Assembly (NCBI GenBank): GCA_031459535.1
Contig: JAVKIJ010000043.1
Location: forward strand, 1-26,469
Reading direction: 5' to 3'
From: Candidatus Fervidifonticultor quintus
Lineage (GTDB): Bacteria > Sysuimicrobiota > Sysuimicrobiia > Sysuimicrobiales > Humicultoraceae
Length of the DNA stretch: 26,469 nt
Shown here piece by piece: positions 5,911 through 21,966 of the stretch. Each line of letters opens with the position of its first letter. The first letter of the stretch is position 1. The notes beneath the pieces are model-generated. The model was not told the DNA's origin. It saw only the letters and a list, made by a program, of their open reading frames with translations, and made no database searches. Made by a program: the position numbers and the translations under genes.

Positions 5911-5935
5911 GTCCCTTCCTCCTATGACTAGATGA

Positions 5936-6436
5936 TCAGACCCCTGGTTCCGTGACGCAAGGCCTGGCGAGCGAGGCGCCGTCTGCCAGCATCCACCCCC
6001 TGATGATCTCCCGCGCCCGTCTGACGACCGCTGGCAGGGCGGCCCGCACCGGGTCTGAGAGGTCGGTCCCCAACCAGACCTCGGGCGACCGCTCCACTGC
6101 CAGCACGCGAATCTCGTCGGGGAGATCGAGTCCGGCGGCCGCGCCGATAGCCAGGGCCTCGCCGTACCCCACGTAGTGCGCCGAAGGGCTGCGCACCGCA
6201 TCCGGTGCCAGGGTGAACTCCTGGACTTCGCCGACCGCCGCGCCGGCGACTTGGCTGTCCAGCAGCAGAACCTTCCGGACTCCGACGACCGCGTCCAGCA
6301 ACGCCAGCCCCGATCGGGTGGTCGTCTCCACGGGCAGCCCCTCCTCCCGCAGCGCCTCGGCCGCCAGGAGCCCCACGGCGTCGTCGCCCAGCAGGTCGTT
6401 GCCGACTCCCAGTACCAGCACCCGTTCAGCAATCAT
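5936..6436 (-). CDS. [NiFe]-hydrogenase maturation endopeptidase (HyaD/HycI family)
   Basis: VLVLGVGNDLLGDDAVG N-terminal motif, LLLDS and SAH metal-ligand positions. It lies directly downstream of the large subunit. Confidence 0.92.
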   Translation of the reverse strand: MIAERVLVLGVGNDLLGDDAVGLLAAEALREEGLPVETTTRSGLALLDAVVGVRKVLLLDSQVAGAAVGEVQEFTLAPDAVRSPSAHYVGYGEALAIGAAAGLDLPDEIRVLAVERSPEVWLGTDLSDPVRAALPAVVRRAREIIRGWMLADGASLARPCVTEPGV

Positions 6437-6460
6437 CGCGCCGGCTGACGCTGTACCTCC

Positions 6461-7984
6461 TCATCGCCGGATCTCCCGCACCAGGCTGCCCTGGTGGTCA
6501 TAGATGGAGACCAGCAGCGGCATCTGGCCCGGGAGCGAGTGCGTGCCGCAGCCATGGCAGGGGTCGTAGGCGCGAAACGCCATCTCCACCATGTTCAGCA
6601 GTCCGTCGTCCACCTGGCCCTTGTGGATCAGCGACTTCGCCGCCCGATCCACCGACATGGCGATGCGCGCGGCATTGTTCTGCGTGGCGACGATCAGGTT
6701 GGCCTTGGTGATCAACCCCTGCTCGTCGGTCTCGTAGTGGTGGATGAGGGTGCCGCGCGGGGCTTCCACGACGCCGACGCCCACAGTGGGCACGGCGGTG
6801 GGCAGCACGCGGATCTCAGAGCTGGTAATGTCCGGGTCGTGGGCCAGCTCTTGCAGGCGCTCGGCCGCGTACAGCAACTCGATGACGCGGGCCCAGTGGG
6901 TGGCCAGGGTGTGGTGCACGGGCTTGCCGCCCAGGGTGGCGAAGAACTCCTGGTAGGCCGCTTGGGCCAACGGCGTGGCCATGCCGTCGGCCGCGTTCAG
7001 GCGCGCCAGCGGCGCCACGGCGTACACCCCGCTGTCCGGTCCCTCCGCGAAACCTCTCCAGCCCACGGGTTTGAGATAGCAGAACTTGATGTAGCTCCAC
7101 GGCTCCACGTGCTCGGCGACGTAGCTCAGGTAGTCCTGGGTCTTGAACTTCGCGTACTCCCGGCCGGCCGGGTCGACCACCCGCAGCTCGCCGTCGTAGA
7201 AGTTCACACGGTTGGCGGCGTCCACGAGGCCCATGTAGTAGGTCTTGTGGGTGTAGGCGTCGGACGTAATCAGCTTCACGTACTCGGCGTTGCCCAGCAC
7301 GACCTTGCGCAGCACGTCCAGGGTGAACTTGCCGAACTCGACGGCCCGCGCCGCCACGTCCTGGAACCGCGGGAGCTCGTCGGGCGTAATGCCCTTGGCG
7401 ATGCCGCCCGGGAGGCCAAAGACCGGGTGGATCGCCTTGCCGCCCAGCAGCGTCATCAGCTCGCGGATCTCCCGCCGCATGGCGATGACCTGCTTGCCGA
7501 CCTCGACCCCCACGGTGGCCACGACCCCCAGCACGTTGCGCTGCTCCTTGGGCGCGGTGGGGCCCACGACGAAGTCGGGGCCTCCCAGGAAGTAGAAGTG
7601 GATCGCGTGGTCCTCGATCATGAACAGCGAGTAGAAGAGTTCCCGGACCTTCTTGGCCGCGAGCGGTGGGTCGACCTTGTACAGGTCGTCCAGGGCCTTG
7701 GTGGCCGCCATGTGGTGGGCCGTCGGGCACACCCCGCAGATGCGGGAGGTGATCTGGGGCATGTCTTCGGCCGGGCGGCCGCGCGCGAACGCCTCGAACC
7801 CGCGCAGCTCCGGGACCTGGAAGTACGCGCGCTCCACCTCACCGGACTCGTCCAGGAAGATGTCGATCTTGCCGTGGCCCTCCAGGCGGGTGACTGGGTC
7901 CACCGTCACCCGACGGCGGCGCATGTACGCCTCATTGCTGCGCTGCTGCGCCAGATTCCATGCCTGCTGCGTCGCTTCTTCCAT
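6461..7984 (-). CDS. mvhA: Group 3c-type [NiFe]-hydrogenase large subunit (MvhA); alternative start at 7924
   Basis: DPVTRLEGHG, L1 ITSRICGVCPTAH, EAPRGTLIHHY, and L2 AFRAYDPCHGCGTH followed by a 25-aa cleavable tail. GGAGG overlaps the hdrB stop. The hdrA/mvhD/mvhG context supports group 3c. Confidence 0.93.
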   Translation of the reverse strand: MEEATQQAWNLAQQRSNEAYMRRRRVTVDPVTRLEGHGKIDIFLDESGEVERAYFQVPELRGFEAFARGRPAEDMPQITSRICGVCPTAHHMAATKALDDLYKVDPPLAAKKVRELFYSLFMIEDHAIHFYFLGGPDFVVGPTAPKEQRNVLGVVATVGVEVGKQVIAMRREIRELMTLLGGKAIHPVFGLPGGIAKGITPDELPRFQDVAARAVEFGKFTLDVLRKVVLGNAEYVKLITSDAYTHKTYYMGLVDAANRVNFYDGELRVVDPAGREYAKFKTQDYLSYVAEHVEPWSYIKFCYLKPVGWRGFAEGPDSGVYAVAPLARLNAADGMATPLAQAAYQEFFATLGGKPVHHTLATHWARVIELLYAAERLQELAHDPDITSSEIRVLPTAVPTVGVGVVEAPRGTLIHHYETDEQGLITKANLIVATQNNAARIAMSVDRAAKSLIHKGQVDDGLLNMVEMAFRAYDPCHGCGTHSLPGQMPLLVSIYDHQGSLVREIRR

Positions 7985-7999
7985 GGCTGTCCAGCCTCC

Positions 8000-8869
8000 T
8001 CAGGCCACCGCCAGCGCGGCCGGCACCAGCTCGGTGCCGATCCCCAACCGCTGCGGGGATGCGCCGAGCGCCAGGCCCATCAACTGGGTGAAGTAGAGAA
8101 CCGGCATGGCAAAGCCGGTCCGGAAGGTGCGGTTCACGTGCCGCTGGTAGCATTCCAGGTTGAGCTGGCAGAGCGGGCAGACCGTGGCGATCACCTGCGC
8201 CTGCCCGTCGGTGGCGCTCTGGAGCAGATCGCGCACCATGGCCAGCGCCGCCTTGCGAGCGGTGACGATCAGCGAACCCCCGCAACAGCGGAGGCGGTGG
8301 GCGAACGGCACAGGGGTGGCGCCGATGGCGGTCATCAGGTCCTCGAAGAAGTGCGGCTGTTCCACCTCGTCGAGCTCCGCATGCTCCTTCCTCGGCCGCA
8401 CCACCTGGCACCCGTAGTACGCGGCCACCCGCAGGCCGGTCAGCGGCCGGACCGCGCGCTTCTTGATCTCCTCCAGTCCCACGTCCTCGGCGAACACGTT
8501 GATCAGGTGCCGGACCTGGATGGCGCCCGTGAACCTGAGGCCGTCGGCCTCCAGGGCGTGGTTGACGTGCTCGGCCAGGTCTGGCTCCTTCTGCAGGTGC
8601 GCGTTGGTGAAGTACATGTTCTTGTAGCACCCGCTGCACGGGGCGATCAGGTCGTGGCCCTCGCGTTCGGCGATGGCCAGATTCCGCGCGCATAGCGTGT
8701 AGGCCAGCAGCTCGTCCACGTGGAAGTAGGCCGTGGCGCCGCAGCAGTTCCAGTCCTCCAGCTCCTTGAGTTCCACGCCCAGGCGCTGCGCGGTCTCCAG
8801 GGTGGAGACGTGGTAGGAGGCGGCCATGCGCTCCAGGGCGCAGCCGGGGAAGTAACTGTAGGTTCTCAT
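8000..8869 (-). CDS. hdrB: Heterodisulfide reductase subunit B (two complete CCG domains)
   Basis: Start is ATG8869 (MRTYSYFPGC), an ATGA overlap with the hdrC stop. Motifs are YFPGC..WNCCGA..APCSGC and YYGC..RCCGG..VCPLC, plus C-terminal PVLYFTQLMGLALG. Confidence 0.93.
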   Translation of the reverse strand: MRTYSYFPGCALERMAASYHVSTLETAQRLGVELKELEDWNCCGATAYFHVDELLAYTLCARNLAIAEREGHDLIAPCSGCYKNMYFTNAHLQKEPDLAEHVNHALEADGLRFTGAIQVRHLINVFAEDVGLEEIKKRAVRPLTGLRVAAYYGCQVVRPRKEHAELDEVEQPHFFEDLMTAIGATPVPFAHRLRCCGGSLIVTARKAALAMVRDLLQSATDGQAQVIATVCPLCQLNLECYQRHVNRTFRTGFAMPVLYFTQLMGLALGASPQRLGIGTELVPAALAVA

Positions 8870-9429
8870 GCGGCCCTCCCGATCGGGACGATCCTGGCCA
8901 GCACCCTCCGCAGCCGCTCGGTGTCCCGTACGCGGCTGGGCGCCAGCGGCAGCCGCCGCTTGCGCAACAGGCCCAGGGCCACGAAGGCCTCGTCCAGCAG
9001 CCCCCGCAGCCCATGGCGGAACACGTAGGGCGCCGCCAGTTCTGGCTCGAAGGAGCGTCCGTACTTGAGAATCATGCGCACAAATCGCCTGGAGAAGTCG
9101 GCGCCCAGCACGCCGCGCGGCACCTTGTTCTGCCACAGGGTGTAGCGCTTGAGCCCGTACATCATGTAGGCGATGTCAATGCCCTTGGGGCAGCGCACGG
9201 TGCACTGGTAACACGAGGCGCAGGTCCAGAAGGCATTGCTGGCCAGGACCTGCTTCTTGAGGCCGAGCCGGATCATGGCGATGAGCTCGCGCGGCGAGTG
9301 ATCCATGTACTTGGCGGCCGGGCAGGTGGCCGCGCATGTGCCGCACTGGATGCAGGCGTGGAGCGGGTTGCCCTCGGTGGCGTACAGCACGTTGACGATC
9401 TCGTCGGCGAACGTGGGTCTGGTGGCCAT
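8866..9429 (-). CDS. hdrC: Heterodisulfide reductase subunit C (2x[4Fe-4S])
   Basis: CIQCGTCAATCP and WTCASCYQCTVRCP. ATG9429 has GAGGTG 6 nt upstream. It is adjacent to hdrB. Confidence 0.9.
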   Translation of the reverse strand: MATRPTFADEIVNVLYATEGNPLHACIQCGTCAATCPAAKYMDHSPRELIAMIRLGLKKQVLASNAFWTCASCYQCTVRCPKGIDIAYMMYGLKRYTLWQNKVPRGVLGADFSRRFVRMILKYGRSFEPELAAPYVFRHGLRGLLDEAFVALGLLRKRRLPLAPSRVRDTERLRRVLARIVPIGRAA

Positions 9430-9439
9430 GGGATGCACC

Positions 9440-9862
9440 TCAGCGGCTCCCCGCCTTTCGCTTGCGGGCCGCCTCTAGCAGCGCGGCCACGCGCTCCAGG
9501 AGCAGTTGGGGATCCACGGGCTTCTCCATGAGCTCGTCTACCGGCAGCAGGTGGGGGTGCACCGGCTGGCCGGGGAAGAGGAAGGCGATCTGCTCCCGCA
9601 GGCCGGTGATGATCAGGACCGGGATGTCGGCGAGGCGGGGCTCCTTGCGCATCTTCCTGGCCAGCATGATCCCCTCGGCGCCCCGGCCCATCAGGATGTC
9701 CAGGAGCAGCAGGTCGTACGGTTTGCTCCGCAGCGCCTCGAACCCGTCCTTGGGATTATACGCCGCGTCCACGGCGTACCCCGCGGACTCCAGGATCCCC
9801 CGGAGGCCGTCCACGAAGTCGGGATCATCGTCGATGATCAGCAGTTGTGCTTGCGGGTTCAT
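9440..9862 (-). CDS. Single-domain response regulator (receiver only)
   Basis: Start is ATG9862 (MNPQAQLLIIDDD) after GGAGGTG, an ATGA overlap with the upstream gene. It has the phospho-Asp in LLLDILM, ITG and EKPV, and no output domain. Confidence 0.88.
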   Translation of the reverse strand: MNPQAQLLIIDDDPDFVDGLRGILESAGYAVDAAYNPKDGFEALRSKPYDLLLLDILMGRGAEGIMLARKMRKEPRLADIPVLIITGLREQIAFLFPGQPVHPHLLPVDELMEKPVDPQLLLERVAALLEAARKRKAGSR

Positions 9863-11019
9863 GCCGCACCTCCCTGAGGCGAAGTCTGCAACACCCGGTC
9901 CGCCGGGGGCGGGATGCCGGCAGTGCCCCGCAGTGCTGGCAGGGAGATTACGAACGTGCTCCCCGCGCCAGGGGCGCTCTCCACGGTGATTGAGCCGTCG
10001 TGCGCCTCGACGATCCGGCGAGTGATGGCCAGGCCCAGGCCAGCGCCGCCTTCCTCCGCGCGACCGGCTGCGCCCCGGTAGAAGTCCCCGAAGATGAAGG
10101 GCAGCTCGTCGGGCGGGATGCCCGGGCCCATGTCCCGGACGGCGATCACCACCCGGCCGTCCCGCTCCTCGGCGGTGATCTGGACCCGGCTGCTGGCCGG
10201 GGAGTACTTCACGGCGTTGCCCACCACGTTGACCAGCGCCTCCACCAGGGCGCCCTCGTCGCCCAGGACGGCGCTGGACGGCTCGACCACCGTGGTGACG
10301 ATCTCGATGTCCTTGGGCCGCGCGTAGGGTTGGACGCTCTCGACGGCCTTGGCGATGACCGGCGTCACCGGGGTCGGCTTGAACTGCTCGCGGATCTTCC
10401 CGATGTCGGTCGAAAAGGCCCGCAACCATGTCTGGATCATGCGCAGCAGATCGTCGATGCGCGCCTTCGTCCGCTCCAGCCTGGCCCGCTGTGCCTCGGT
10501 GAGGACCCCGGACAGCTCCGCGGCCAGCAGCATGAGGTTCTGCTGCACGGCGGCCAGGGGCGCCCTCAGTTCGTGGGCCACAATGGCGGCGAAGTTCTCA
10601 CGCAGCGCTTCTCGTTCCCGCCGCAGCGCTGCCGCCTCCAGCGCCAGCCTCCGCTTCTCCAGGCCTCGTTGCGTCACCAGGCGGAACTCGTCGGGCGTGA
10701 AGGGCTTGGGCAGGAAGTCGTACGCGCCCTTCTGCATGGCGCCTACCGCCGAGTCCAGGGTGGCGTAGCCGGTAATGACGATGGTCACGATGGAGGGGTC
10801 GAGGGCCCTGATGCGCTCTAGCACCTCGAAGCCCGAGAGGCCCGGCATCTTGAGGTCGACGAACACCACGTCCGGCCGGAGCTCCTCGACCCGTCGCAGC
10901 CCCAGGGCGCCGTCCATGGCCGTGGCCACCTCATAGCCGCTGCCTTCGAGGATCTGGCTGCAGGCGTCGAGCACGATCTCCTCGTCGTCGATGATGAGGA
11001 TCCGCGGCTTCTGATCCAC
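9859..11019 (-). CDS. Hybrid receiver-histidine kinase (REC-HisKA-HATPase), cytoplasmic
   Basis: REC: ILIIDDE, FVDLKMP, ITGY, LPKPF. H-box AHELRAPL, N-box NVVGNAVKY, DMGPGIP and GAGLGLAI. No TM segments. Confidence 0.92.
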   Translation of the reverse strand: MDQKPRILIIDDEEIVLDACSQILEGSGYEVATAMDGALGLRRVEELRPDVVFVDLKMPGLSGFEVLERIRALDPSIVTIVITGYATLDSAVGAMQKGAYDFLPKPFTPDEFRLVTQRGLEKRRLALEAAALRREREALRENFAAIVAHELRAPLAAVQQNLMLLAAELSGVLTEAQRARLERTKARIDDLLRMIQTWLRAFSTDIGKIREQFKPTPVTPVIAKAVESVQPYARPKDIEIVTTVVEPSSAVLGDEGALVEALVNVVGNAVKYSPASSRVQITAEERDGRVVIAVRDMGPGIPPDELPFIFGDFYRGAAGRAEEGGAGLGLAITRRIVEAHDGSITVESAPGAGSTFVISLPALRGTAGIPPPADRVLQTSPQGGAA

Positions 11020-11022
11020 GGC

Positions 11023-13029
11023 CTACGGCGCCTCCGCATTCCCGACCGGCAGGCGGATGAAGAACGACGTGCCCTTCCCGACCTCGCTCTCTACCGCGAT
11101 GGAGCCTCCGTGCTCCTTGACGATGCCGTAGCTGATGGCCAGCCCCAGCCCGGTGCCGTGTCCGAGGCCCTTGGTGGTAAAGAAGGGGTCGAAGATCCGC
11201 TCCAGATCCTCCGGGCGGATCCCGTGCCCGGTGTCAGTGATCTCCACCTCGATGATGGCTTCCGCCGGGTCGAACCGTGTGGCCAACCTCAGGCGTCCAC
11301 CTCCGTCCATGGCCTCCGCTGCATTGATGATCATGTTCATGAAGACCTGTTGCACCTGGGACGGGTCCAGGTAGGCAGAGGGGAGATTGGGCTGGAGCGA
11401 TTTCTCGATCTCGATGTTGTGAAAGAGCGCCTGGTTCTCCACCAGCGACACGCACTCCTGGAGCAGCGCGTTCACGTTGGTGGGCCTCTTCTGCGGTGTC
11501 TGCGGCCGGGCGAAGTCGAGCAGGCCGCGGACGATGTCTCGGCACCGGTCCGCCTGGTTGACGATCTTCTGCAAGCTGGCCCGCAGCGGGCTGTCCGGTG
11601 GCGCCTTCTCCAGCAGCAGGTGCGCGTAGGTGATGATCCCTTGAAGCGGGTTGTTGATCTCGTGGGCCACGCCGGCAGAGAGCTGACCGATGATCGCCAG
11701 CCGTTCGGACTCCCTGATCTTTCTCTGGGCGAAGTCCTTGAGCTGCTCGTTCCGTTCCTTGAGGGCGGCGGCCATGCGGTTGAAGTTGTCGGCGAGGTCC
11801 TGCAGCTCGTCGTTGGTCCTGAGATGGACCCGGGCGTCGAGGTTGCCGTCCGCGACCTGCCGGGACGCGGAGACCAGTTGCGTGACCGACGAGGATACCC
11901 CCCGAGAGATCCGGTAGGCAACGGCCGCGGATGTCAACGCGCCGGCCAGCACGATGGCCAGGAAGACACCCACGGTTCGCCGCCTCAGGTCCACGTATTT
12001 TTGCTCCAACACGCCCACGTAGAGGATGCCCACGACCTGGCCGGCGAGGTCCCGTAGGGGTTCGTAGGCGGCAATGTACCAGTTGGTCACCACATAGGCG
12101 CGGCCGATCCAGGGCTGTCCTTCCACTGCGACCCGCTGGTAGACGTCCTCGGCGATGCGTGTGCCGATGGCCCGCGACCCGTCCGGGTTCCTAACGTTGG
12201 TCGCGATCCGGACGTCGTCGAGGAAGAGGGTGGATGTACCGATGTCCTGGCCCCGGTACTGGACCTTCGCGAAGACGGTCTCCTTGATCTTGTCCACGAT
12301 CTCGTAATTGCGGTTTAGCAGGATCCCTCCATAGAGGACCCCGATCTCGTGGTTGCTCGCGTCCAGCACCGGCGCGGCCGCCATCAATGCCAGTCCGGCC
12401 GTCAGCTCCATGTCGGGCCGGAACCGCGCCTTTGGTGTCTCCACGAACCGGATCCGAGCCCTCTCGGCCAGATGGGGCGACTCCCGCCGCAGGTCCTCAA
12501 GGGTGACGAGCGTCACGGCAGCGACTGGCTCCTTGCGCTCCAGCGCCGCGGTGACAACCCCGTCGTGCCGCAGACCACCACCGGTGGCCCCGGCGTGGCT
12601 CGTCCGCAGGAGGACCACGCCGTCCTTGTCGGCGAGTGTCAGGAAGTCCAGCCCCTCACGCTCCCTGATCCTCGACAGATCACCTGACACCTGACCGACC
12701 TTCCGCGCCAAGAGCGCATCCCGGACCACATACCGACCGGCCGTCAGGCGCACGACGTAGTTCACGTGGTTCAACCGGCCCAGCAGGATCTCCCGAGCAG
12801 CGTTGAGGTTGTTGCGGACCGTGGTCTCTGCCTCTGACTCGATCAGGTGGCCGATGAGCCGGGTCCCCACCACGCTGAGGGCGACCACGGTCACCAGGAT
12901 GACGACCAGGAAGCTCAGGATGAGCTTGGTCGCGATCGGGAGGATGATCCCATCCCGTCGCAGGATCAGGCGGGCGAGCGCCTCCCTTGCGTCCGTCGTC
13001 CAGGCTGCCGGTCGCCCTACCGCGCCCAT
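11023..13029 (-). CDS. Membrane sensor histidine kinase (TM, extracytoplasmic Cache-like domain, TM, HAMP, HisKA, HATPase); start approximate
   Basis: TM1 LILSFLVVILVTVVALSVVG, Cache-like TLFLDDVRIATNV..RAIGT..YIAAYEPL..VGILYVG, TM2, HAMP (DELQDLADNFNRM), H-box AGVAHEINNPL, DTGHGI, FDPFFTTK and GTGLGL. The ORF-track extension to 13443 overlaps mvhG. Confidence 0.92.
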   Translation of the reverse strand: MGAVGRPAAWTTDAREALARLILRRDGIILPIATKLILSFLVVILVTVVALSVVGTRLIGHLIESEAETTVRNNLNAAREILLGRLNHVNYVVRLTAGRYVVRDALLARKVGQVSGDLSRIREREGLDFLTLADKDGVVLLRTSHAGATGGGLRHDGVVTAALERKEPVAAVTLVTLEDLRRESPHLAERARIRFVETPKARFRPDMELTAGLALMAAAPVLDASNHEIGVLYGGILLNRNYEIVDKIKETVFAKVQYRGQDIGTSTLFLDDVRIATNVRNPDGSRAIGTRIAEDVYQRVAVEGQPWIGRAYVVTNWYIAAYEPLRDLAGQVVGILYVGVLEQKYVDLRRRTVGVFLAIVLAGALTSAAVAYRISRGVSSSVTQLVSASRQVADGNLDARVHLRTNDELQDLADNFNRMAAALKERNEQLKDFAQRKIRESERLAIIGQLSAGVAHEINNPLQGIITYAHLLLEKAPPDSPLRASLQKIVNQADRCRDIVRGLLDFARPQTPQKRPTNVNALLQECVSLVENQALFHNIEIEKSLQPNLPSAYLDPSQVQQVFMNMIINAAEAMDGGGRLRLATRFDPAEAIIEVEITDTGHGIRPEDLERIFDPFFTTKGLGHGTGLGLAISYGIVKEHGGSIAVESEVGKGTSFFIRLPVGNAEAP

Positions 13030-13043
13030 CTCGGTGGTCAGTC

Positions 13044-14060: not shown

Positions 14061-14065
14061 TCCGC

Positions 14066-14584
14066 TCACCTCCCGTCCGATGCCGCCGCGGCCACGGCGG
14101 CCTCGGCGGGGACTTCGCCAGCGAGCATCTCGGCGTCCCACCGGCGCCATCGGCCCGGCAGGTCGAGCCGGCCCAGGCTGCGCAGCGTGGCGGTCATCTC
14201 CGCCACGACCCGCGCCACCTTCTCGCCTTCGGACGCGGAGATCCACTCCAGGCGCAGGCGTTCGTCCTCGATGCCCATCTCCCGCAGCATGCGCCGCAGC
14301 AGGGTCATCCGCCGCAGCGCCTTGTAGTTGCCCTCGGCATAGTGGCAGTCGCCTGGATGACAGCCTCCGATGAGCACGCCGTCGGCCCCCTGCGCGAAGG
14401 CCTCGACCACGAACTGGGGGTCGACGCGCCCCGAGCACATCACCCGGATCACGCGCACGTTGGGCGGATACTTCATGCGCGAGGTTCCGGCCAGGTCGGC
14501 TGCGGTGTAGGTGCACCAGTTGCAGAAGAACGCCACGATGGTCGGTTCCTGTCCGTCTGTCGTCCCGACTCGCTGCTCTTCCAT
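14066..14584 (-). CDS. mvhD: MvhD [2Fe-2S] subunit
   Basis: [43 protein letters not shown] and [15 protein letters not shown]14584 follows GGAGGGA. Confidence 0.95.
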
Positions 14585-14605
14585 CGCCACTCCCTCCGTG
14601 CGCCG

Positions 14606-16609
14606 CTATGCCGCCGCCAGGATGCCCTGGATCTCGGCGAAGACCTGGTCGTCCTCAAAGAGATGCTGGCGGATCGAGCCCGACGGACAGGCGGCAACGC
14701 AGACGCCGCAGCCCTTGCACAGGGCCTCGGTGATCTGCGCCTTGGCCGTCGCGGCATTGAACGTGATGGCATTGTACGGACACAGCGGGATGCAGGTCTT
14801 GCATCCCGAGCACTCGTCTTCCAGGATGTAAGCCGTATTGGGCTCCAGCTCGATTTGCCCCACGTCGATGAGCGCCAGCGCCTCGGCGGCCGCCGCTCCG
14901 GCCTGGGCCACCGAGTCGGGGATGTCCTTGGGCCCCTGGCAGGCACCGGCGAGGAAGATCCCGTCGGTGAAGGTGCTCACCGGGGCCAGCTTGGGGTGCC
15001 GTTCCAGGAACCACCCTTCATTGGAGCACGAGATGTTGAATAGGCGGCGCACCTCCTGGGCGTCCGGCTGCGCCTCCAGCCCCACGCTGAGCACCACCAT
15101 GTCCACCGGGATGCGCCGGACCATGCCGGCCAGCGTGTCCTCGACCTGGATGACCAGCTTGCCCTGCTCCTCGGGAGTCTGGGCCCAGTCGGACACCTGT
15201 CCCACCTTGCCCCGGATGAAGCGGATGCCCTCGTCGAGGGCCCGGTTGTAGAACTCCTCGAACCCCTTGCCGGGGGTGCGGATGTCGATGTAGAAGTTGC
15301 AGACCTCGGCGCCGGTGCGCTCGCGGATCAGGTGCGCCAGCTTGATGGAGTACATGCAGCAGACGCGGGAGCAGTAGACGTTGTAGTTCGTGTCGCGGGA
15401 GCCGACGCAGTGGATGATGCCGACCCGCTGAGGCTTGCGGCCGTCGCGCATGACGATCTCGCCGCCGGTGGGCCCCGAGGCGTTGATCAGACGCTCGACC
15501 TCCAACGCGGTGTAGACGTTGGGATAGACGCCGTACCCGTAGTACGGGATGCGACGGGCATCGAAGGTCCGGAAGCCCGTGGCCAGGATGATGGCGCCGA
15601 CCTCGATCTCCTCGGTGGTCTCGGTCTGCTTGAAGTTGATGGCGTTGCGGTCGCCGCAGGCCTCGACGCAGGTCTTCTTGCACCGGCCCGACTTGAACTC
15701 GATGCACGCCTCGGGGTCGATGACCACCACCTGGGGGACAGCCTGTGGGAAGGGCATGTAGATCGGCTTGCGCTTGCTCAGGCCCAGGTTGAACTCATCA
15801 GGGGTCTTGCCTTCCTTGTAGACGCACGCTTCGATGCACTCCCGGCACCCCACGCAGAGCTCCTCGTCCACGTAGCGCGGCCGGCGTCGGACGGTCACCT
15901 TGTAGTTGCCCACGAAGCCCTCGACCTTCTGGACGTCCGAGTAGGTCCACAGGGTGATGTTGGGGTGGGCCTTGACCGCCGTCATCTTAGGCGTGAGGAT
16001 GCACGCGGCGCAGTCCAGGGTGGGAAAGGTCTTGTCGAACTGGGCCATGTGGCCGCCGATGGTGGGCTCGCGTTCCACCAGGTAGACGTGCTTGCCGGCG
16101 TTGGCCATGATCAGCGCCGCGTGGATCCCCGCGATCCCTCCACCGACCACCAGGACGTTGGGGTTAACGGGAACGGTGCGGCGCTCCAGCGCTTCGTGGA
16201 AGACCACCCGCTGCACCGCGGCCCGGACCAGATCCATGGCCTTGCGCGTGGCGGCCTCCCGATCGTCGTGCACCCAGGAGTCCAGCTCGCGCACGCTGAC
16301 CATCTGGAAGTAGTAGGGGTTGAGACCGCCGGCGGCCGTGGCGCCGCGGAACGTGTGCTCGTGGAGCAATGGCGAGCACGCCGCTACCACCACCCGGTTC
16401 AGCCGGTGCTCCTCGATGTCTTTCTTGATGAGCTCCTGACCAGGGTCGGAGCACATGTACTTGTAGTCCCGGGCGATGACCACGTGGGGCAGTCTGGCCG
16501 CGTAGGCAGCCAGGCGCCCGACGTCCACGGTCCCGGCGATGTTCGTGCCGCAGTGACAGATGTAGACCCCGACGCGCGGGCCGCCGTTGGGCGAATAGGC
16601 CTCAGGCAT
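14606..16609 (-). CDS. hdrA: Heterodisulfide reductase subunit A (FAD/Fe-S, bifurcating type)
   Basis: VYICHCGTNIAG, MCSDPGQ, AACSP, VVGGGIAG, FDKTFPTLDCAAC, an inserted ferredoxin domain, ALEVERL, HCVGSRD, CSRVCCMYSIK, GACQGPKDIP, and C-terminal CSGCKTC..CP / CKGCGVC..CP. Confidence 0.96.
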   Translation of the reverse strand: MPEAYSPNGGPRVGVYICHCGTNIAGTVDVGRLAAYAARLPHVVIARDYKYMCSDPGQELIKKDIEEHRLNRVVVAACSPLLHEHTFRGATAAGGLNPYYFQMVSVRELDSWVHDDREAATRKAMDLVRAAVQRVVFHEALERRTVPVNPNVLVVGGGIAGIHAALIMANAGKHVYLVEREPTIGGHMAQFDKTFPTLDCAACILTPKMTAVKAHPNITLWTYSDVQKVEGFVGNYKVTVRRRPRYVDEELCVGCRECIEACVYKEGKTPDEFNLGLSKRKPIYMPFPQAVPQVVVIDPEACIEFKSGRCKKTCVEACGDRNAINFKQTETTEEIEVGAIILATGFRTFDARRIPYYGYGVYPNVYTALEVERLINASGPTGGEIVMRDGRKPQRVGIIHCVGSRDTNYNVYCSRVCCMYSIKLAHLIRERTGAEVCNFYIDIRTPGKGFEEFYNRALDEGIRFIRGKVGQVSDWAQTPEEQGKLVIQVEDTLAGMVRRIPVDMVVLSVGLEAQPDAQEVRRLFNISCSNEGWFLERHPKLAPVSTFTDGIFLAGACQGPKDIPDSVAQAGAAAAEALALIDVGQIELEPNTAYILEDECSGCKTCIPLCPYNAITFNAATAKAQITEALCKGCGVCVAACPSGSIRQHLFEDDQVFAEIQGILAAA

Positions 16610-18608
16610 GAGCGGACACCTCCACAGTCAGCGCCTCCTCGACCAGTTCAGCCACGTCCTTGACCACGAGTTTGCCTTCCAGGCCGGAAGTCTTCACCGC
16701 ATCGCGAAACATGGCGAGCTCCTTGGGGCACGCCACAGCCAGGGTCTCCACGCCGTCCAGGCTGGCAGCTTCCCGGACGCGGCTCTCGGCGGGCCGCTCC
16801 CGCAGGCCGGCAGCCTCCTGCATCCACACCCGCCCGCCTCCGGCTCCGCAACAGTAGGAGCCGGCGCGGGTCCGTGGCATCTCCACCAGCTCTCCCAGGG
16901 CCGCCAGCACCCGCCTAGGCGGCTCGAACACACCGTTGTACCGGCCGAGGTAGCAGGGGTCGTGATAGGTGATGCGCCGGCCCCGCGCCCGCGCCGGACG
17001 CAGCCGGCCCTCCTGGCAGGCCTGGTCGAGCACCTCGGTGTAGTGCAGCACCGGCCAGGACGCGCCCAGGACCGGATACTCGTTCTTCAGCGTGTTGTAG
17101 GTGTGCGGATCGGTGGTGACGATCTTCTCGAACCGGCACTTGCGCATCGCCGCCAGGTTCTTCTCCGCCAGCATCTCGAAGAGGCCTTCCTCGCCGACGC
17201 GGCGGATGTCATTGCCGGCGGTGCTCTCCGCGTCGTAGAGGATGCCGACGTCCACCCCCGCGCGGCGGAAGAGCCGCGCCACGGCCCGGGTGGCCTCGCG
17301 GGCCTGCGGATCATACGACGCGAAGTCGCCCACGAACCACAGATACTCGGCGGGTTCCTTCCGGATGTCCTTGATCGGGACGGCCAGCCCTTGGGTCCAG
17401 CGGGCGCGCATCTTGGGCGACTGCCCGAACGAGTTACCATAGCGGGACGCCGCCGTGAGCGCATCCTGGAGATGCGAATCCACCTCGCCGCGACCGACCA
17501 GGTGACGGCGCATCTCCACCAGCTTGGGGATGGGCTCGATGAAGACCGGGCACGCCTCGTGGCAGGCGCCGCACGTGAAGCAGGCCCAGATCGTCTCCGC
17601 GTTGACCACCTGACCGATCAGGGCCCGGGCCCCGTTGCGGCGAGCGCGCAGGTGAGCGCGCAGGTCCAGCACGAGCCCCTTGGGGCTCAGCGGCGTCCCC
17701 GAGAGCCACGCGGGGCACGCGGCCTGGCACCGTCCGCACTCGGTACACGCCTCCAGGTCCAGCAGGTGCTTCCACGTGAACTGCTCGATGGAGAAGACGC
17801 CGGGATCCGACGCCTGGGCTCCGCCCGGGCTCGGGTTGCTGGTCCCGTGCAACCTGCCCATGGGCTCCAGTGAGCGGAAGAAGATGTTGAGCGGGGCAGT
17901 CAGCACGTGCAGAATGCCCGAGAACGGCAGATACGCGATGAAGGCGAACGCCAGCACGGCATGGCCCCACCACGTGTAGCGGTGGAGCCTCTCGAGCACG
18001 CCCGCTTCCATGCCGCGAAAGGCCTGCGCCGCGATCCACCCGCCTGGCGACCACAGCGCCCACGGGTCCCGGGTCGCGACGATCCGCAGCCCTTCCACCG
18101 CAAAGCCGGACAGCAGGATCAGGAAGGTGAGGACGAGCAGGACCGAGTACCGGTCCGACCGGCGTGGCTCCCTCAGCCGCGCCGGTCGTAGCACCCATCG
18201 TCGGAAGAGCGCCATGCCTGTACCCACCACGGCCAGGATGCCGAAGAGGTCCACGACCAGGGCCATGAAGTACAGGTAGAACGGTCCCCGCAACGTGGGA
18301 ACCCCCAGGTACTCTTCCAGCATGACGAGGCATGTGGCCGCAAAGAGCACCACGAATCCCCAGAACAGCGAGGCGTGCAGGATGCCCGCGTACGCCTCCC
18401 GGAGAATTCGGACCTGCGCCAGGCCGTGGGCGATCAGACCGGTCAGACGGATCCACGGGTGATCCCACCGAACCTCGGGCCGGCCGCGCAGCCACCGCCG
18501 GACCGTGGCGACACACCCCCAGACGAACGCCGCGACAAACGGTAGGAAGAGCAGGTAGATGAGTTTGTGGGCAGGGATGTTCCAGTACGCCTCGCGGAAC
18601 GGAGTCAC
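16602..18608 (-). CDS. Membrane-anchored Fe-S oxidoreductase: NarI/cytochrome b-like TM domain + 2x[4Fe-4S] + two CCG-type domains (HdrF/FadF/EMO-like ETF partner)
   Basis: N-terminal TM helices carry candidate heme His residues (ILHASLFWGF, WWGHAVLA, ILHVLTAP) and ILLSGFAVEGLR. Further motifs are CTECGRCQAACP, CFTCGACHEACP, YHDPCYLGR and CCGAGGG. GTG start overlaps the etfA stop (GTGA). Confidence 0.88.
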   Translation of the reverse strand: MTPFREAYWNIPAHKLIYLLFLPFVAAFVWGCVATVRRWLRGRPEVRWDHPWIRLTGLIAHGLAQVRILREAYAGILHASLFWGFVVLFAATCLVMLEEYLGVPTLRGPFYLYFMALVVDLFGILAVVGTGMALFRRWVLRPARLREPRRSDRYSVLLVLTFLILLSGFAVEGLRIVATRDPWALWSPGGWIAAQAFRGMEAGVLERLHRYTWWGHAVLAFAFIAYLPFSGILHVLTAPLNIFFRSLEPMGRLHGTSNPSPGGAQASDPGVFSIEQFTWKHLLDLEACTECGRCQAACPAWLSGTPLSPKGLVLDLRAHLRARRNGARALIGQVVNAETIWACFTCGACHEACPVFIEPIPKLVEMRRHLVGRGEVDSHLQDALTAASRYGNSFGQSPKMRARWTQGLAVPIKDIRKEPAEYLWFVGDFASYDPQAREATRAVARLFRRAGVDVGILYDAESTAGNDIRRVGEEGLFEMLAEKNLAAMRKCRFEKIVTTDPHTYNTLKNEYPVLGASWPVLHYTEVLDQACQEGRLRPARARGRRITYHDPCYLGRYNGVFEPPRRVLAALGELVEMPRTRAGSYCCGAGGGRVWMQEAAGLRERPAESRVREAASLDGVETLAVACPKELAMFRDAVKTSGLEGKLVVKDVAELVEEALTVEVSAHA

Positions 18609-19603
18609 GACGCCGCCGCCATCCCTTTCCGCTTCTCGATTTCATCCTTCAGCACGGGCAGGAGCTCGAACATGTCCAGCACCGCGCCGTAGTCTGCCAC
18701 GTCGAAGATGGGCGCGTTGGGGTCACTGTTGACGGCGATGATCAACTCGGCGTCTTTCATCCCCTCCACGTGCTCCGGGGCCCCGCTGATGCCCAGGGCG
18801 AGGTAGAGTCGGGGTTTGACGATCAGGCCCGACTTGCCGATCTGCCGGGACAGCGGTAGCCACCCCTGGTCTACCGTCGGCCGCGACCCGCAGACGGCTC
18901 CGCCCAGTGCCTGCGCCAGGTCCTCGGCGAGGGGCAGGTTCTCTTTCCGCTGCAGGCCCCGGCCGACGGCCACGAGCACGGGCACCTTGGTGATGTCCAC
19001 ATCGCCGGCCGCCGGCTCGAGCAGCCGCCGGACCTTCATCCGGATGTCCAGCGCCGGCGGGGGCGGCACGTTCTCGATCTGGGGAGTCCGGTCAGAGAGG
19101 CCGCTTTCGGCCGGGAAGGCGCCGGACAGCACGGTCACCGCCGCCGGCCGCTCGACAATCTGGGCCTCGGCCAGGAGCTTCCCCCCGCACATCTGGCTGG
19201 TGACGACCAGCCGGTCGTCTTCCACCGCAACGTCCGTGGCATTGACAGCCAGGGGCATCTTCAGGCTGCCGGCCAGCACGGCGGCCAGATCCATCCCGAT
19301 GGACGTCGCCCCGAAGAACACGACGCGCGGGCCTCGGTGCTGTACCAGGTCGCGCAGCACGGCCGCATGCGCTCCGGGTGTGAACTCAGCCAGCGACGGG
19401 TCTTCCACCGAGATGACCACATCCGCGGCGCCCAGTGTGCTCGCCAGCGGCTGCGTCCCTGCGCCGAGGATCACCGCGGCTAGCCTGCCGCCGAGTGCGT
19501 CGGCGATCTCGCGGCCCTTGCCCAGCATCTCGTAGGTCGATCCGGCGACCGTTCCCCGCAGGTGCTCCACGTAGACCCAGACGTCCTGTCCCGATGCGCT
19601 CAT
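18605..19603 (-). CDS. etfA: Electron transfer flavoprotein alpha subunit
   Basis: VWVYVEH, VAVGRG, LGGAVCGSRPTVDQGWLP..RQIGKSG, LYLALGISGAPEH and IIAVNSDPNAPIFDVADYG. Confidence 0.93.
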   Translation of the reverse strand: MSASGQDVWVYVEHLRGTVAGSTYEMLGKGREIADALGGRLAAVILGAGTQPLASTLGAADVVISVEDPSLAEFTPGAHAAVLRDLVQHRGPRVVFFGATSIGMDLAAVLAGSLKMPLAVNATDVAVEDDRLVVTSQMCGGKLLAEAQIVERPAAVTVLSGAFPAESGLSDRTPQIENVPPPPALDIRMKVRRLLEPAAGDVDITKVPVLVAVGRGLQRKENLPLAEDLAQALGGAVCGSRPTVDQGWLPLSRQIGKSGLIVKPRLYLALGISGAPEHVEGMKDAELIIAVNSDPNAPIFDVADYGAVLDMFELLPVLKDEIEKRKGMAAAS

Positions 19604-20364
19604 CGCAGCAACCCCCGGTCCGCCAGAATCGTCGCGATCTGTCCGGCCACGTCCTGGGGCGAGCCGGCCAGGATCGTGGCTCGCTCGGCAGGTTGGGGTT
19701 TGAAGAGCCTGCGGATGGCGGGCCCGGGGAGGGTCTGGCGAGCCGATACCGGCCGCTCGGTGAGGCTGCGGCTCTTGCGCGTCTCCCGGATTCTCGCCAC
19801 CGGTACATACCGGGGCGGCTGAGGCGCCGAGAGCACGCCCATCACCGCTGGCGGGACCACCTCGATCTCAGCGGCAAAGCCCCCAGGGTACTCTTTCTGG
19901 ACGACCAGCGTGCCGTCTGCCAGCTCGACCGAGCGCGTGACGCCGACGAACGGCAGGCCCAGGAGCCCCGCCAGCAGCCCGGCCGCATGCCCGTCGTGAT
20001 CGTCGATGGCGTAGACCCCGGTGAGGACCAGGTCGGCCGGGGAGGCCCCGAGCGCGTCGGCGAACACCTCGGCCGCCGCTCGCTTGGTGAGAGGCCCGGG
20101 GAGGCCCGTGAGTTTGACCGCCTCATCGGCCCCTTTCGCCAGCGAGGAGAACAGCGCTTCGTCCACGTCCCCGTAGTCCAGGCCGAACGTGGTCACCCGG
20201 GCGCCGTGACGGTCCTTGAGCAGCAGGGCTTGCTCCAGGGCGTGCTCGTCGCTCTCGCTGAGCACGTAGCGCATCCACTGGGTGTCCAGCGCCACCCCGG
20301 AGGTGTCGATCTCCAGTTCCTCGACCAGGTCGGGCACCATGCTGAGCAGCACCGCGATGTTCAT
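19600..20364 (-). CDS. etfB: Electron transfer flavoprotein beta subunit
   Basis: Start is ATG20364 (MNIAVLLSMVPD), an ATGA overlap. Motifs are SDEHALEQALLLK, LAKGADEA, DLVLTG..AID..DG..LAGLLGLP and PRY. Confidence 0.9.
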   Translation of the reverse strand: MNIAVLLSMVPDLVEELEIDTSGVALDTQWMRYVLSESDEHALEQALLLKDRHGARVTTFGLDYGDVDEALFSSLAKGADEAVKLTGLPGPLTKRAAAEVFADALGASPADLVLTGVYAIDDHDGHAAGLLAGLLGLPFVGVTRSVELADGTLVVQKEYPGGFAAEIEVVPPAVMGVLSAPQPPRYVPVARIRETRKSRSLTERPVSARQTLPGPAIRRLFKPQPAERATILAGSPQDVAGQIATILADRGLLR

Positions 20365-21587
20365 GCCGCCGCCCCTCCGCGCATGGACTGATCCAGCAGC
20401 TCGAGGATGTCCCGCACGACCATCTTGCCTTCGTTGCCGGTAGACTTCAGGGAGTCCTCGAAGCGTGAGCTCTCGAAGGGGCAAGCCACGGCCAGGATGC
20501 CGGCGCCCGTGGCCAGGGCGTGACCGATCCGGCGGTCCGAGAGTCGTTCGTTGGCGGCCTGCCAGATCACCGTGTCCAGCCACATGCCGCCCCCTCCGCC
20601 GCCGCAGCACAGGGCGTTCTCCCGGCTGAAGGCCATCTCCACCAGGCTGACGCCCGGGATGGCCCGCAGCAGCGCCCGCGGCGCGTCGTAGAGCCCGCAC
20701 ATGCGGCCCAGGCAGCAGTTATCGTGGTACGTCACCTTCGCCTCGACGCGATGGGTCAACAGCGGCTTCAGCGCATCCAGGCGCTCCGCCAGGAACTGGA
20801 CGTAGTGCTTGACCGGATAGCGCTTTCCCAAGGTGGGGTAGACGCGGGTCAGCGAGTTGTAGGCGTGGGGATCGCTGGTGATGATCTCCCGGTACTCGTA
20901 CTTCTCGAGCAACGACGCGTTGTGCTCGACCAGGCTCTCGAACAAGCCCTTCTCCCCCGCCAGGCGCTCGCAGTCACCGATGCAGCGCTCCTCGGGCCCG
21001 AGGATGGCGAAGTCGACGCCCAGTGCGCGCAGGATCCGCGCCATGGCCTGGGACTGCACCATGTTGCGAGGGTGATACGACGGATAGCACTCCACGAGCC
21101 AGAGGACGTCGAACGGGCGGCGCAGCTGGGAGGCCACCGGGACAGGCACGCCGGCGCCCTTGGTCCACTCCAGTCGCTTGCGAGGGCCCTCGCCCAGGGA
21201 GTTGCCGTAGCGATACGTGTTGTCCAGCGCCCGCTTGAACTCCCCGGGGAGCTTGAGACCGGCATTGATGGCCGCGTCGCGTAGCGCCGGGAACAGGATG
21301 TCGGTGATCTTCAGGCCGGTGGGACAGCGCGCCGTGCAGTTGTAGCACGAGACGCACAGCCAGAGCGTGTTGCTCTCGAGGACGCGGTCCAGCAGGCCCT
21401 CTCTAGCCAGATAGATGGCCTTTCGGGGGGTATACTCCATGGCGAAGGCCAGCGGGCAGGCCCCCCCGCACACCCCACACTGAATGCACGGATTGAATGC
21501 TTTCCGCCAGTCCGGCAGGGACCCAAGAAACAACGAGGCGTGCGCGTCCCCCCTTGACGCAGCACCGTGCTGGTCGGCCGTCACCAT
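20361..21587 (-). CDS. Soluble HdrD/GlcF-like protein: HdrC-like 2x[4Fe-4S] domain + CCG domains
   Basis: CIQCGVCGGACP, LWLCVSCYNCTARCP, YHDNCCLGR, LCCGGGGG and ACPF. GGGAGG RBS upstream. No TM segment. Confidence 0.88.
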   Translation of the reverse strand: MVTADQHGAASRGDAHASLFLGSLPDWRKAFNPCIQCGVCGGACPLAFAMEYTPRKAIYLAREGLLDRVLESNTLWLCVSCYNCTARCPTGLKITDILFPALRDAAINAGLKLPGEFKRALDNTYRYGNSLGEGPRKRLEWTKGAGVPVPVASQLRRPFDVLWLVECYPSYHPRNMVQSQAMARILRALGVDFAILGPEERCIGDCERLAGEKGLFESLVEHNASLLEKYEYREIITSDPHAYNSLTRVYPTLGKRYPVKHYVQFLAERLDALKPLLTHRVEAKVTYHDNCCLGRMCGLYDAPRALLRAIPGVSLVEMAFSRENALCCGGGGGGMWLDTVIWQAANERLSDRRIGHALATGAGILAVACPFESSRFEDSLKSTGNEGKMVVRDILELLDQSMRGGAAA

Positions 21588-21656
21588 AGTGTCGCCTCCC
21601 GGAGAGTGTCCCGCGGTGCTCTAATCCCCCCCGACCCCCTGCGGAGGCTCCCTCAC

Positions 21657-21875: not shown

Positions 21876-21966
21876 CTGTCGGCGGCCCCGCCGCCCGGGC
21901 GGTCTGCCCGGGGCTGCCTCGGGGCCCGACGAAAGGCAAGAGGATAAGGACCGGGAGCCCCCAGCG

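Follow-up and report, generated by a model that had tools for sequence, protein, structure and literature searches.

Introduction

Mvh-type hydrogenases accompanied by HdrA occur in many non-methanogenic bacteria, and what serves as their high-potential electron acceptor is an old open point. A close described relative is the methanogen complex MvhADG-HdrABC, an H2:CoM-S-S-CoB, ferredoxin oxidoreductase (5ODC, 8RVU); for the Mvh-HdrA hydrogenases of non-methanogen taxa, "a unique functional role" has been mentioned (PMC6085437). Here, we analysed a gene cluster of Candidatus Fervidifonticultor quintus (assembly GCA_031459535.1, contig JAVKIJ010000043.1) that joins genes for such a hydrogenase to genes for an electron-transferring flavoprotein (ETF) and two further iron-sulfur proteins. 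It occupies positions 5936–21587 of what we call the window, that is, the whole 26.5-kb contig (26,469 nt; C77 of the host genome). With a probability of roughly one half, we read this cluster as encoding a cytoplasmic flavin-based bifurcating hydrogenase that follows the methanogen plan, but whose high-potential branch would end in the membrane quinone pool instead of a heterodisulfide.

Parts of such a route are known from other systems. In the class II benzoyl-CoA reductase (BCRII) of Geobacter metallireducens, the main passages of a preprint describe electron transfer from BamE, a protein of the HdrA type, to the HdrD-like BamD and on to an ETF, which is proposed to reduce menaquinone via EMO, an ETF:menaquinone oxidoreductase (bioRxiv 10.64898/2026.04.10.717634). 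The EMO/EtfD proteins of M. smegmatis (9OJN) and S. aciditrophicus are single chains composed of a NarI-like transmembrane domain with three histidines, two cubane clusters and an NCB domain. According to the main passages of the EMO preprint, the two solved EMOs have both non-cubane clusters (nine or ten ligands, the distal cluster being variable) and a single heme, without energy coupling (bioRxiv 10.64898/2026.08.18.745454). Finally, the main text of a preprint from 2021 reports a gene context of group 3c hydrogenase, HdrA2B2C2D and EtfAB in Anaerolinea and Dehalococcoidia and suggests electron bifurcation; the legend of its Fig. 6B lists ETF-QO, ETF beta, ETF alpha, HdrD, HdrC2, HdrB2, HdrA2, a hydrogenase Fe-S subunit and HycI (bioRxiv 10.1101/2021.08.23.457424).

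Results

The cluster consists of 14 open reading frames (ORFs), all located on the minus strand and transcribed in the order HdrD-like protein, EtfB, EtfA, HdrF-like protein, HdrA, MvhD, MvhG, sensor kinase, receiver-kinase hybrid, receiver, HdrC, HdrB, MvhA and protease. Read on this strand, genes overlap by ATGA at 20361–20364, 19600–19603, 9859–9862 and 8866–8869 and by GTGA at 18605–18608, whereas hdrF and hdrA share the 8 bp ATGCCTGA at 16602–16609. Elsewhere in the cluster, neighbouring genes are separated by 15, 5, 14, 3, 1, 15 and 24 bp. An initial annotation of the window had described 14 co-oriented genes with these overlaps and without gaps above about 25 bp, and its coordinates were exact.

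Judged by sequence, the cluster encodes all parts of an MvhADG-HdrA module and these are close to the solved methanogen enzymes. The HdrA flavoprotein (14606–16609; NCBIfam HdrA2, 4.5e-255) aligned with 5ODC_A over residues 11–664 (1e-212), placing its K423 on K409 of 5ODC_A, which we take to be the lysine beside the flavin N5; the FAD of HdrA is presumed to be the bifurcating flavin. Encoded together with this full-length HdrA are MvhD, the [2Fe-2S] adaptor between hydrogenase and HdrA (14066–14590; Pfam FlpD, 3.7e-58; NCBIfam VhuD, 1.3e-40), and the [NiFe]-hydrogenase small subunit MvhG (13044–14060; Pfam Oxidored_q6, 1.9e-21; NCBIfam VhuG, 5.3e-59). The large subunit MvhA (6461–7984), group 3c-like, matched 5ODC_F (2.9e-109), the large subunit of the bifurcating NiFe-HydABCSL hydrogenase (7T2R_D, 1.8e-117) and the NCBIfam model VhuA with 1.1e-119, though at 399.7 bits and hence below the cut-off of 800. 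Its motifs ICGVCPTAH and AYDPCHGCGTH deviate at one position (G for A) from the L1 and L2 cysteine motifs printed as ICGxCxxxH and AYDPCxxCATH (PMC6085437). HdrC, with two [4Fe-4S] clusters (8866–9438; Pfam Fer4_8, 6.9e-12; TIGR03290, 6.3e-21), and HdrB, with the complete CCG motif pair (8000–8869; 7BKB_B, 3.9e-52; 5ODC_B, 7.9e-48), make HdrABC complete in the window.

Thus, all six subunits of methanogen MvhADG-HdrABC are present and close in sequence, and presumably the input path and the bifurcating flavoprotein are the same. In contrast to the methanogen complex, conserved genes for the HdrD-like protein, EtfAB and a membrane protein of the EMO type are added here, HdrCB is optional in the family, the genes are arranged in another order and the cluster includes signalling genes. 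Moreover, McrA (MCR_alpha), the methyl-CoM reductase marker that was detected in both methanogens used as controls, was not found in the host genome (88.9% complete), so the cluster does not fall under a definition based on CoM-S-S-CoB and a methanogenic host.

A search with the HdrF-like protein against one genome per species returned 154 stretches encoding relatives, from which 75 loci were kept and compared with the 14 window proteins by tblastn (host labels are taken from the record titles). In 50 of these 75 loci, an HdrF-type gene, HdrA and MvhG or MvhA were located on one strand, and eight further loci reached HdrA before the sequence ended. This gives linkage in 58/75 loci, counting an HdrF-type gene that is followed, directly or after the signalling-HdrCB cassette described below, by HdrA on the same strand. 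Another 16 loci ended, by contig or locus end, before the position of HdrA, and only L073, labelled as an archaeal metagenome-assembled genome (MAG), had a different context without the linkage. The hosts are Armatimonadota (the nearest, 74–81% identity), many Anaerolineales and other Chloroflexota, Planctomycetota, Ignavibacteria/Bacteroidota, Zixibacteria and MAGs labelled Acidimicrobiia. Within one Anaerolineales-level order, 47 of 301 genomes contain the cluster. A further search covered 61 genomes that share the genus, family or order of the host, its own included (the unpublished genome G030 was among them and bears no result); the order EtfB-EtfA-HdrF-HdrA recurred in 15 of the 60 other genomes, with HdrA 76–92% identical. 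EtfB adjoining EtfA is conserved in the loci, and the hdrF-hdrA junction is kept across phyla, frequently with overlapping stop and start codons. Because the same gene set recurs in 58 of the 75 loci and in several phyla, the arrangement is far beyond chance. The proposed linkage of the etf/hdrF block to the hdrA/mvh block was hence borne out, and separation of the two blocks in relatives, named beforehand as the finding that would speak against it, was not the pattern among the 75 loci and the related genomes. An exception, without an HdrA homologue at E≤1e-50, is genome G056 (L140, G056:C10), whose HdrD-EtfBA-HdrF block has a different Pyr_redox_2 flavoprotein upstream, 37% identical to part of HdrA, and a fused Fer4_11 and NrfD protein downstream.

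The same neighbourhood as in the Chloroflexi context of 2021 was found here. There, in the main text, it is restricted to Chloroflexi and treated briefly, with no account of wiring, cofactors or cassette (bioRxiv 10.1101/2021.08.23.457424), whereas the present copy stems from an Armatimonadota-type hot-spring MAG and has the cassette at another place.

The proteins with CCG domains differ in their cluster ligands. Aligned to the ten cysteines that bind both non-cubane clusters of HdrB, the window HdrB kept all ten, the HdrD-like protein six and the HdrF-like protein four; two other proteins of the host genome, a fused HdrCB on contig C57 and an EMO paralogue on contig C105, kept ten and nine, respectively. 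These patterns hold family-wide. All ten cysteines were present in 37/37 HdrB sequences from the loci. In the HdrD-like family (64/64), the four cysteines of the second motif, Glu372, which replaces the fifth cysteine, and Asp239 are invariant (C291, C327, C328, C369, E372 and D239-P240-H241), as are eight N-terminal cysteines, whereas the remaining first-motif positions are cysteines in a minority of sequences or in none. In the HdrF-like family, not a single first-motif cysteine was left in 61/61 sequences; the four second-motif cysteines are followed at the fifth position by Asp (58 sequences) or Glu (3 sequences), and D428, D500 and H502 are invariant. Both families share an invariant Asp-Pro-His where HdrB has Cys-x-Gly-Cys.

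In the main passages of the EMO preprint, the distal cluster is the one bound by first-motif residues (C42 and C81 in HdrB), and a histidine is placed at the proximal cluster of EMO (bioRxiv 10.64898/2026.08.18.745454), and a histidine is likewise described at the proximal cluster of BamD in the main passages of the BCRII preprint (bioRxiv 10.64898/2026.04.10.717634). The ligand pattern therefore indicates that the distal non-cubane cluster is lost family-wide in the HdrD-like and HdrF-like proteins, whereas four cysteines, a carboxylate and the D-P-H histidine of the proximal cluster are retained in both. Since the distal ligands are lost and the proximal ones kept, these proteins look like single-cluster electron relays rather than enzymes of disulfide chemistry; about four irons, not eight, are predicted for each of their NCB domains. 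Of the cluster proteins, HdrB alone could carry out a disulfide reduction of the methanogen type. With only HdrB possessing the complete two-cluster site, the shared thiol/disulfide shuttle that the initial annotation had derived from the presence of three CCG proteins loses its basis.

The HdrD-like protein (408 amino acids; 20361–21587; Pfam CCG, 4.5e-20, and Fer4_8, 1e-11) is soluble and combines an HdrC-like domain for two cubane [4Fe-4S] clusters with a CCG/NCB domain that has the proximal non-cubane site only. It matched 9OJN_A with 3.7e-46 and HdrC chains with about 4e-17, and we propose that it is an adaptor from HdrA to ETF. In this it resembles BamD, compared here by the text of the preprint's main passages, which likewise is an HdrD-like protein with a disrupted distal cluster, a two-cubane domain and a proximal histidine; unlike BamD, for which five cysteines plus His are reported, the protein, known here from its sequence, has four cysteines plus Glu at the proximal cluster (bioRxiv 10.64898/2026.04.10.717634). 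The likeness extends to the other elements given there for BCRII, namely an HdrA-type flavoprotein, an MvhD-like adaptor, an ETF acceptor and an outlet of the EMO type. Differences from those passages are the input ([NiFe] hydrogenase here, BamGHI there), the low-potential acceptor (presumably ferredoxin here, a tungsten ring reductase there) and the location of the ETF and EMO-type genes inside the operon here.

Among 56 longer homologues of the HdrD-like protein (715–2040 amino acids), 45 fuse a helix-turn-helix domain, HTH_11, in most cases with WYL (YafY-like), to an HdrD-like protein (P0001–P0045). They are 46–52% identical to the window protein and none is encoded in the window. The C-terminal half of one of them, P0004, is 67–69% identical to cluster HdrD genes of Anaerolineales. 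Its fused N-terminal part found no match in the loci analysed here or the host genome of the window and was matched by none of the 47 HdrD-like orthologues from the 301 genomes of one order. Likewise, all 63 HdrD homologues from the 75 loci are unfused, and neither its sequence nor Pfam gave a DNA-binding domain for the window protein. A single HdrD homologue (L055) has an internal TGA at residue 113 of an otherwise intact gene, where either an error in the sequencing or a codon for selenocysteine may be the cause; being confined to one case, the selenocysteine reading was dropped.

Downstream of hdrD follow the ETF genes etfB (19600–20364; Pfam ETF, 3.5e-15) and etfA, the latter with the FAD domain (18605–19603; Pfam ETF, 1.7e-34, and ETF_alpha, 1.6e-30). 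The best solved match of EtfB is the non-bifurcating W3A1 ETF (1O94_C, 7e-19), with bifurcating chains next at 1e-14 to 3e-13. In the alignment, the bifurcating chains 5OL2_B and 6FAH_B show a GDTAQVG stretch, not validated as diagnostic, that has no counterpart in EtfB, and Pfam indicated no N-terminal ferredoxin domain in EtfA. Complex folding of EtfA, EtfB and the HdrD-like protein (49-row alignment each) yielded a median score of 0.75, compared with 0.64 in a control with replaced EtfA; these scores bear on binding in neither direction.

The HdrF-like protein (668 amino acids; 16602–18608; Pfam Nitrate_red_gam, 1.7e-5, and a single CCG stretch) is a membrane protein of the EMO/EtfD type and proposed to be the ETF:menaquinone outlet. 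It aligned with mycobacterial EtfD/EMO (9OJN_A, 9.2e-87) in two stretches spanning the transmembrane and soluble parts and has five predicted transmembrane helices, two cubane-cluster motifs and the NCB domain without distal-cluster ligands. H78, H216 and H234 are invariant in 61/61 sequences and correspond to the same three histidines in 9OJN_A, a pattern from which one heme is expected. As in EMO/EtfD, one chain unites all these parts and the gene adjoins etfBA. Unlike EMO/EtfD, it has none of the five distal-cluster ligands, Asp or Glu replaces the proximal fifth cysteine, and no acyl-CoA dehydrogenase gene lies beside it.

An orthodox paralogue is encoded elsewhere in the host genome (3.1 Mb in 138 contigs, 5.2% contamination). 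On C105, genes for 3-hydroxyacyl-CoA dehydrogenase, acyl-CoA dehydrogenase, EtfB, EtfA and EMO are followed by methylmalonyl-CoA mutase; this EMO, with nine of the ten cysteines, is 45% identical to the window HdrF-like protein. Beta-oxidation hence has its own ETF and EMO in this genome. Because, in addition, none of the 75 loci contained a match to acyl-CoA dehydrogenase (tblastn with one such query, E≤1e-10), the ETF of the cluster is dedicated. These findings weaken the example chosen in the initial annotation, the disposal of electrons from acyl-CoA.

The initial annotation covered all redox domains, which were confirmed by Pfam and NCBIfam, and passed over three signalling genes at 9440–13029, between mvhG and hdrC. 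These encode a sensor histidine kinase (11023–13029; Pfam sCache_3_3, 5.3e-33, HAMP, HisKA, HATPase_c), a receiver-kinase hybrid (9859–11019; Response_reg, 1.1e-29, HisKA, 3.3e-8, HATPase_c, 5.4e-30) and a receiver-only response regulator with Response_reg as the sole Pfam family (9440–9862; 2.4e-17); Pfam identified no DNA-binding domain in any of the three. Together with hdrC and hdrB, they form a five-gene cassette that in the window splits mvhG from mvhA. Of the 50 full-length loci, 30 have all five genes, 15 have none and five have single or weak matches (L008 has just the kinase and L020 a remnant of HdrB, and the others have regulators that are unrelated and of low identity). Full hdrCB without the signalling genes, or the reverse, did not occur among these 50. 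The cassette was found at four positions: between hdrF and hdrA (Anaerolineales and others), between mvhG and mvhA (window, L009 and relatives), between hdrD and etfB (G025, G015, G046), and upstream and inverted (L069). As the genomes counted are related, these numbers do not reflect independent events, and the four positions are the stronger argument.

HdrB of the cassette type (E≤1e-70) was detected in 14 of 94 genomes of the order-level group of the window. In the 13 other genomes, the next gene was MvhA (10) or EtfB (3), and in all 11 genomes with sequence available it was preceded by the response regulator and HdrC; within this group, it was seen only inside such clusters. A genome of the same genus (L142) has the cluster and no cassette, and another same-genus relative (L008/L130) has the sensor kinase alone between mvhG and mvhA and no cassette HdrB elsewhere. 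Two of five cassette-less genomes from other phyla had no HdrB homologue (E≤1e-20) and the other three had separate hdrCBA operons. The cassette is therefore optional and dispensable, and the HdrA complex can do without HdrCB. Judging from their gene content, the genomes lacking HdrB offer no candidate partner other than the HdrD-like protein for the high-potential exit of HdrA. The HdrB remnant of L020 (5454–5666; 24% of the length) lies between hdrF and hdrA; it and the lone kinase of L008/L130 look like relics of cassette loss.

The last gene of the run encodes a hydrogenase maturation endopeptidase (5936–6436), which matched TIGR00072 (1.3e-21; 77.1 bits against a cut-off of 47.45) and no Pfam family at 1e-3. 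Beyond 5936, the co-directional run continues with an ABC-transporter binding protein that begins about 25 bp further on. Queries for the binding protein and the permease matched none of the 75 loci and the ATPase query four, none of them close relatives; the transporter is not a conserved neighbour of the cluster. A scan of 4500–22500 detected no terminator-like site on the minus strand and a single one on the plus strand, compared with 5.5 expected from shuffles. It detected no sigma-70-like promoter either, the sigma-70 consensus being uninformative for the phylum of the host. On the other side, genes on the plus strand (21793–25810) start with an ADP-forming acetyl-CoA synthetase (CoA-binding and ATP-grasp domains) divergent from hdrD, followed by a HisKA_3 kinase and a LuxR-type regulator. 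The synthetase is shared with the three nearest Armatimonadota loci, lying divergent at hdrD in L010 and 2.4–4.2 kb upstream in L040 and L008. The far end of the window (1–2476) contains long overlapping ORFs on both strands (122–1618 minus, 1472–2476 plus) that matched no Pfam family at 1e-5.

Among the marker genes that the initial annotation had singled out for the host, MenA, TusA and acyl-CoA dehydrogenase are present, the latter two outside the window, and McrA and genes of the sulfite-reductase type were not found. A role linked to DsrC, as in sulfate reducers, was dropped after neither DsrC nor NIR_SIR was found in the 88.9% complete genome. A heme-copper oxidase and, on C99, a 3b-like hydrogenase are encoded as well. 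Genes on C57 encode formate-tetrahydrofolate ligase (Fhs), MetF, a 1717-amino-acid HdrA-like fusion, MvhD and the fused HdrCB, with CdhC (acetyl-CoA synthase) further along. The 1717-amino-acid ORF (L084:5341–10494), between MetF and MvhD, combines cyclic-nucleotide-binding, GltD-like, HdrA-like flavoprotein and ferredoxin domains; by its domains, this locus resembles an Hdr-MetF module of the Moorella type in which the giant fusion is unusual. On C71 (L129, L004), a row of genes for a peroxiredoxin-like protein, a DsrE-like protein, TusA, a 216-amino-acid ORF and a 636-amino-acid Fer4 and CCG protein may represent a sulfur-carrier module with its own HdrD-like protein. A thiol or persulfide carrier for HdrB might come from this module, which is not linked to the window.

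Of the sampled words of 11700–21600, 97% occurred in three hot-spring DNA data sets, two of which may be the source of this DNA; DNA runs with 0.06–0.07 of the words are uninformative on habitat. One RNA library of the same study contained 35% of the words. Contigs from this library covered 30/30 bins of 5000–22500, and single contigs bridged hdrB/mvhA (7494–8560) and the response regulator and hdrC (9338–9662) or extended 76 nt upstream of hdrD. The cluster is probably expressed; DNA carry-over into these contigs is possible, and level, strand, transcript ends and a single transcript are not readable from them.

Discussion

We propose the following chain, of which we infer the individual steps, the partners and the direction. 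H2 would be oxidised at MvhA of MvhAG and the electrons would pass through MvhD to the flavin of HdrA. From there, one electron would go uphill to ferredoxin, the low-potential branch, and the other to the two cubane and the one non-cubane cluster of the HdrD-like adaptor, on to the FAD of the dedicated EtfAB and finally, through the non-cubane cluster, the two cubane clusters and the heme b of the HdrF-like protein, to menaquinone. Reduced ferredoxin could supply the carbon monoxide dehydrogenase/acetyl-CoA synthase of the Wood-Ljungdahl pathway and menaquinol could supply respiration. An optional second route for the high-potential electron would run through HdrCB to some disulfide, perhaps controlled by the signalling genes. 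The initial annotation had sketched a chain that connects H2, ferredoxin, ETF and quinone; this is the best reading, and the transfer from BamE via BamD and ETF to EMO and menaquinone, as proposed in the main passages of the BCRII preprint, provides a precedent. ETF could still dock where the distal cluster is lost. In the SaEMO-ETF structure, as given in the main passages of the EMO preprint, the distances of the flavin to the two non-cubane clusters are 12 and 13 angstrom (bioRxiv 10.64898/2026.08.18.745454), so that the proximal cluster alone could accept the ETF electrons. Uptake of H2 is the preferred direction, since the Wood-Ljungdahl genes of the host create a demand for reduced ferredoxin and the ETF stands apart from any dehydrogenase, although the chain could also run backwards.

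Several points weigh against this reading. HdrCB in the window is fully competent, so that a disulfide may be the main acceptor here, and the direction is not readable from the sequence. Genome G056 (96% complete) contains HdrD-EtfBA-HdrF, but an HdrA homologue was not detected in it (E≤1e-50) and Mvh is not encoded close by; thus, the Etf block can work without Mvh-HdrA. The solved proteins nearest to EtfA are bifurcating ETFs (4KPU_A, 1.4e-56; 6FAH_A; 5OL2_A), so this ETF may be more than a simple relay, and the HTH-WYL fusions hint at a sensing role of HdrD-like relatives in some lineages. MqnA of the futalosine pathway was not found in the host genome, which is only 88.9% complete. In a full-text literature search, a biochemical demonstration of any step of the cluster was not found.

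A serious rival, though an unlikely one in our estimation, is the same wiring in reverse, in which reduced ferredoxin and electrons of ETF or menaquinol from fermentation or beta-oxidation would be confurcated at HdrA to form H2. In principle, group 3 [NiFe] hydrogenases and HdrA modules can work in both directions, and the host has beta-oxidation genes, a second, 3b-like hydrogenase and the ADP-forming acetyl-CoA synthetase divergent beside the cluster, which also accompanies the three Armatimonadota loci. Yet acyl-CoA dehydrogenase was missing from all 75 loci, the ETF and EMO of beta-oxidation are encoded separately, the Wood-Ljungdahl genes offer an obvious use for ferredoxin reduced with H2, and by our own estimate confurcation from about -74 mV and about -450 mV would be feasible only at very low H2. 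It is rather improbable that two independent systems are merely co-located, MvhADG-HdrABC reducing some disulfide while HdrD-EtfAB-HdrF carries electrons from another donor to quinone. The complete HdrABC with its fully liganded HdrB, the solitary Etf block of G056 and the TusA and DsrE-like carriers elsewhere in the genome would fit such a division. It would leave unexplained, however, why the hdrF-hdrA junction is conserved across phyla with stop and start often overlapping and why many clusters, and two of the five whole genomes tested, provide no HdrB partner for HdrA; moreover, no conserved substrate dehydrogenase was found in the Etf block with the 14 window, six flank and two beta-oxidation proteins as queries.

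The bifurcating relatives of EtfA raise the question of whether the ETF itself bifurcates, like Fix/EtfABCX, passing electrons of NADH to quinone via HdrF and to a low-potential carrier via HdrD/HdrA, so that two bifurcating flavins would be coupled. Two coupled bifurcation modules have a precedent in BCRII, according to the main passages of the preprint (bioRxiv 10.64898/2026.04.10.717634). We consider this coupled scheme very improbable. Against it, EtfB is closest to the non-bifurcating W3A1 ETF and does not have the GDTAQVG stretch, and EtfA has no N-terminal ferredoxin domain; by its solved relatives, the ETF may be of either type. Still further down the scale, and highly improbable, is a function of the HdrD-like protein mainly as redox sensor or regulator instead of an electron conduit. 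What speaks for it are the many HTH_11 fusions and the close identity of one of them to the Anaerolineales cluster HdrD; against it stand the missing DNA-binding domain of the window protein and the lack of fusions among the 63 homologues from the loci and of the fusion's N-terminal part among the 47 orthologues, and a fusion would also be compatible with electron transfer.

Returning to the hydrogenase wired to the quinone pool, the cassette invites a bolder, and in our view improbable, extension: a phosphorylation-controlled gearbox that switches the high-potential exit of HdrA between a disulfide, reached via HdrCB, and the quinone pool, reached via the HdrD-like protein, the dedicated ETF and the HdrF-like protein. 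The ETF would swing between two single-cluster docks, one on the HdrD-like and one on the HdrF-like protein. As the signalling proteins have no DNA-binding output, the receiver would act on the enzyme itself. If true, this would be a post-translational routing of bifurcated electrons upon an outside signal.

Whether the arrangement had been described before, a matter left open by the initial annotation, has a divided answer: the gene context is in the main text of the 2021 Chloroflexi preprint, and we found no characterisation of it. In the passages covered, the cluster is not described in 10.1101/2024.08.04.606487, PMC5736913, PMC11650866, PMC10290634, PMC13083937 or PMC9723716. The wiring, the pattern of cluster loss and the cassette were not found in the main passages of the three preprints, whose supplements may hold part of them. 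Measured against these passages, the gene context is already in print, and the single-cluster pattern of the HdrD-like and HdrF-like proteins and the optional five-gene cassette at four positions are new.

Taken by its genes, the cluster is a real and conserved variant of the HdrA-based bifurcating systems, with the function proposed above. The signalling-HdrCB cassette, mobile in its position and still unexplained, offers a second handle on it. For the Mvh-HdrA hydrogenases outside the methanogens, the cluster supplies concrete candidates for the high-potential acceptor, namely an HdrD-like adaptor, a private ETF and a quinone reductase of the EMO type. If the wiring is true, H2 would feed electrons to ferredoxin and to the respiratory chain simultaneously, which would add a new member to the small set of flavin-based bifurcating systems and would be relevant to the use of H2 in hot springs, soils, sediments and wastewater sludge.

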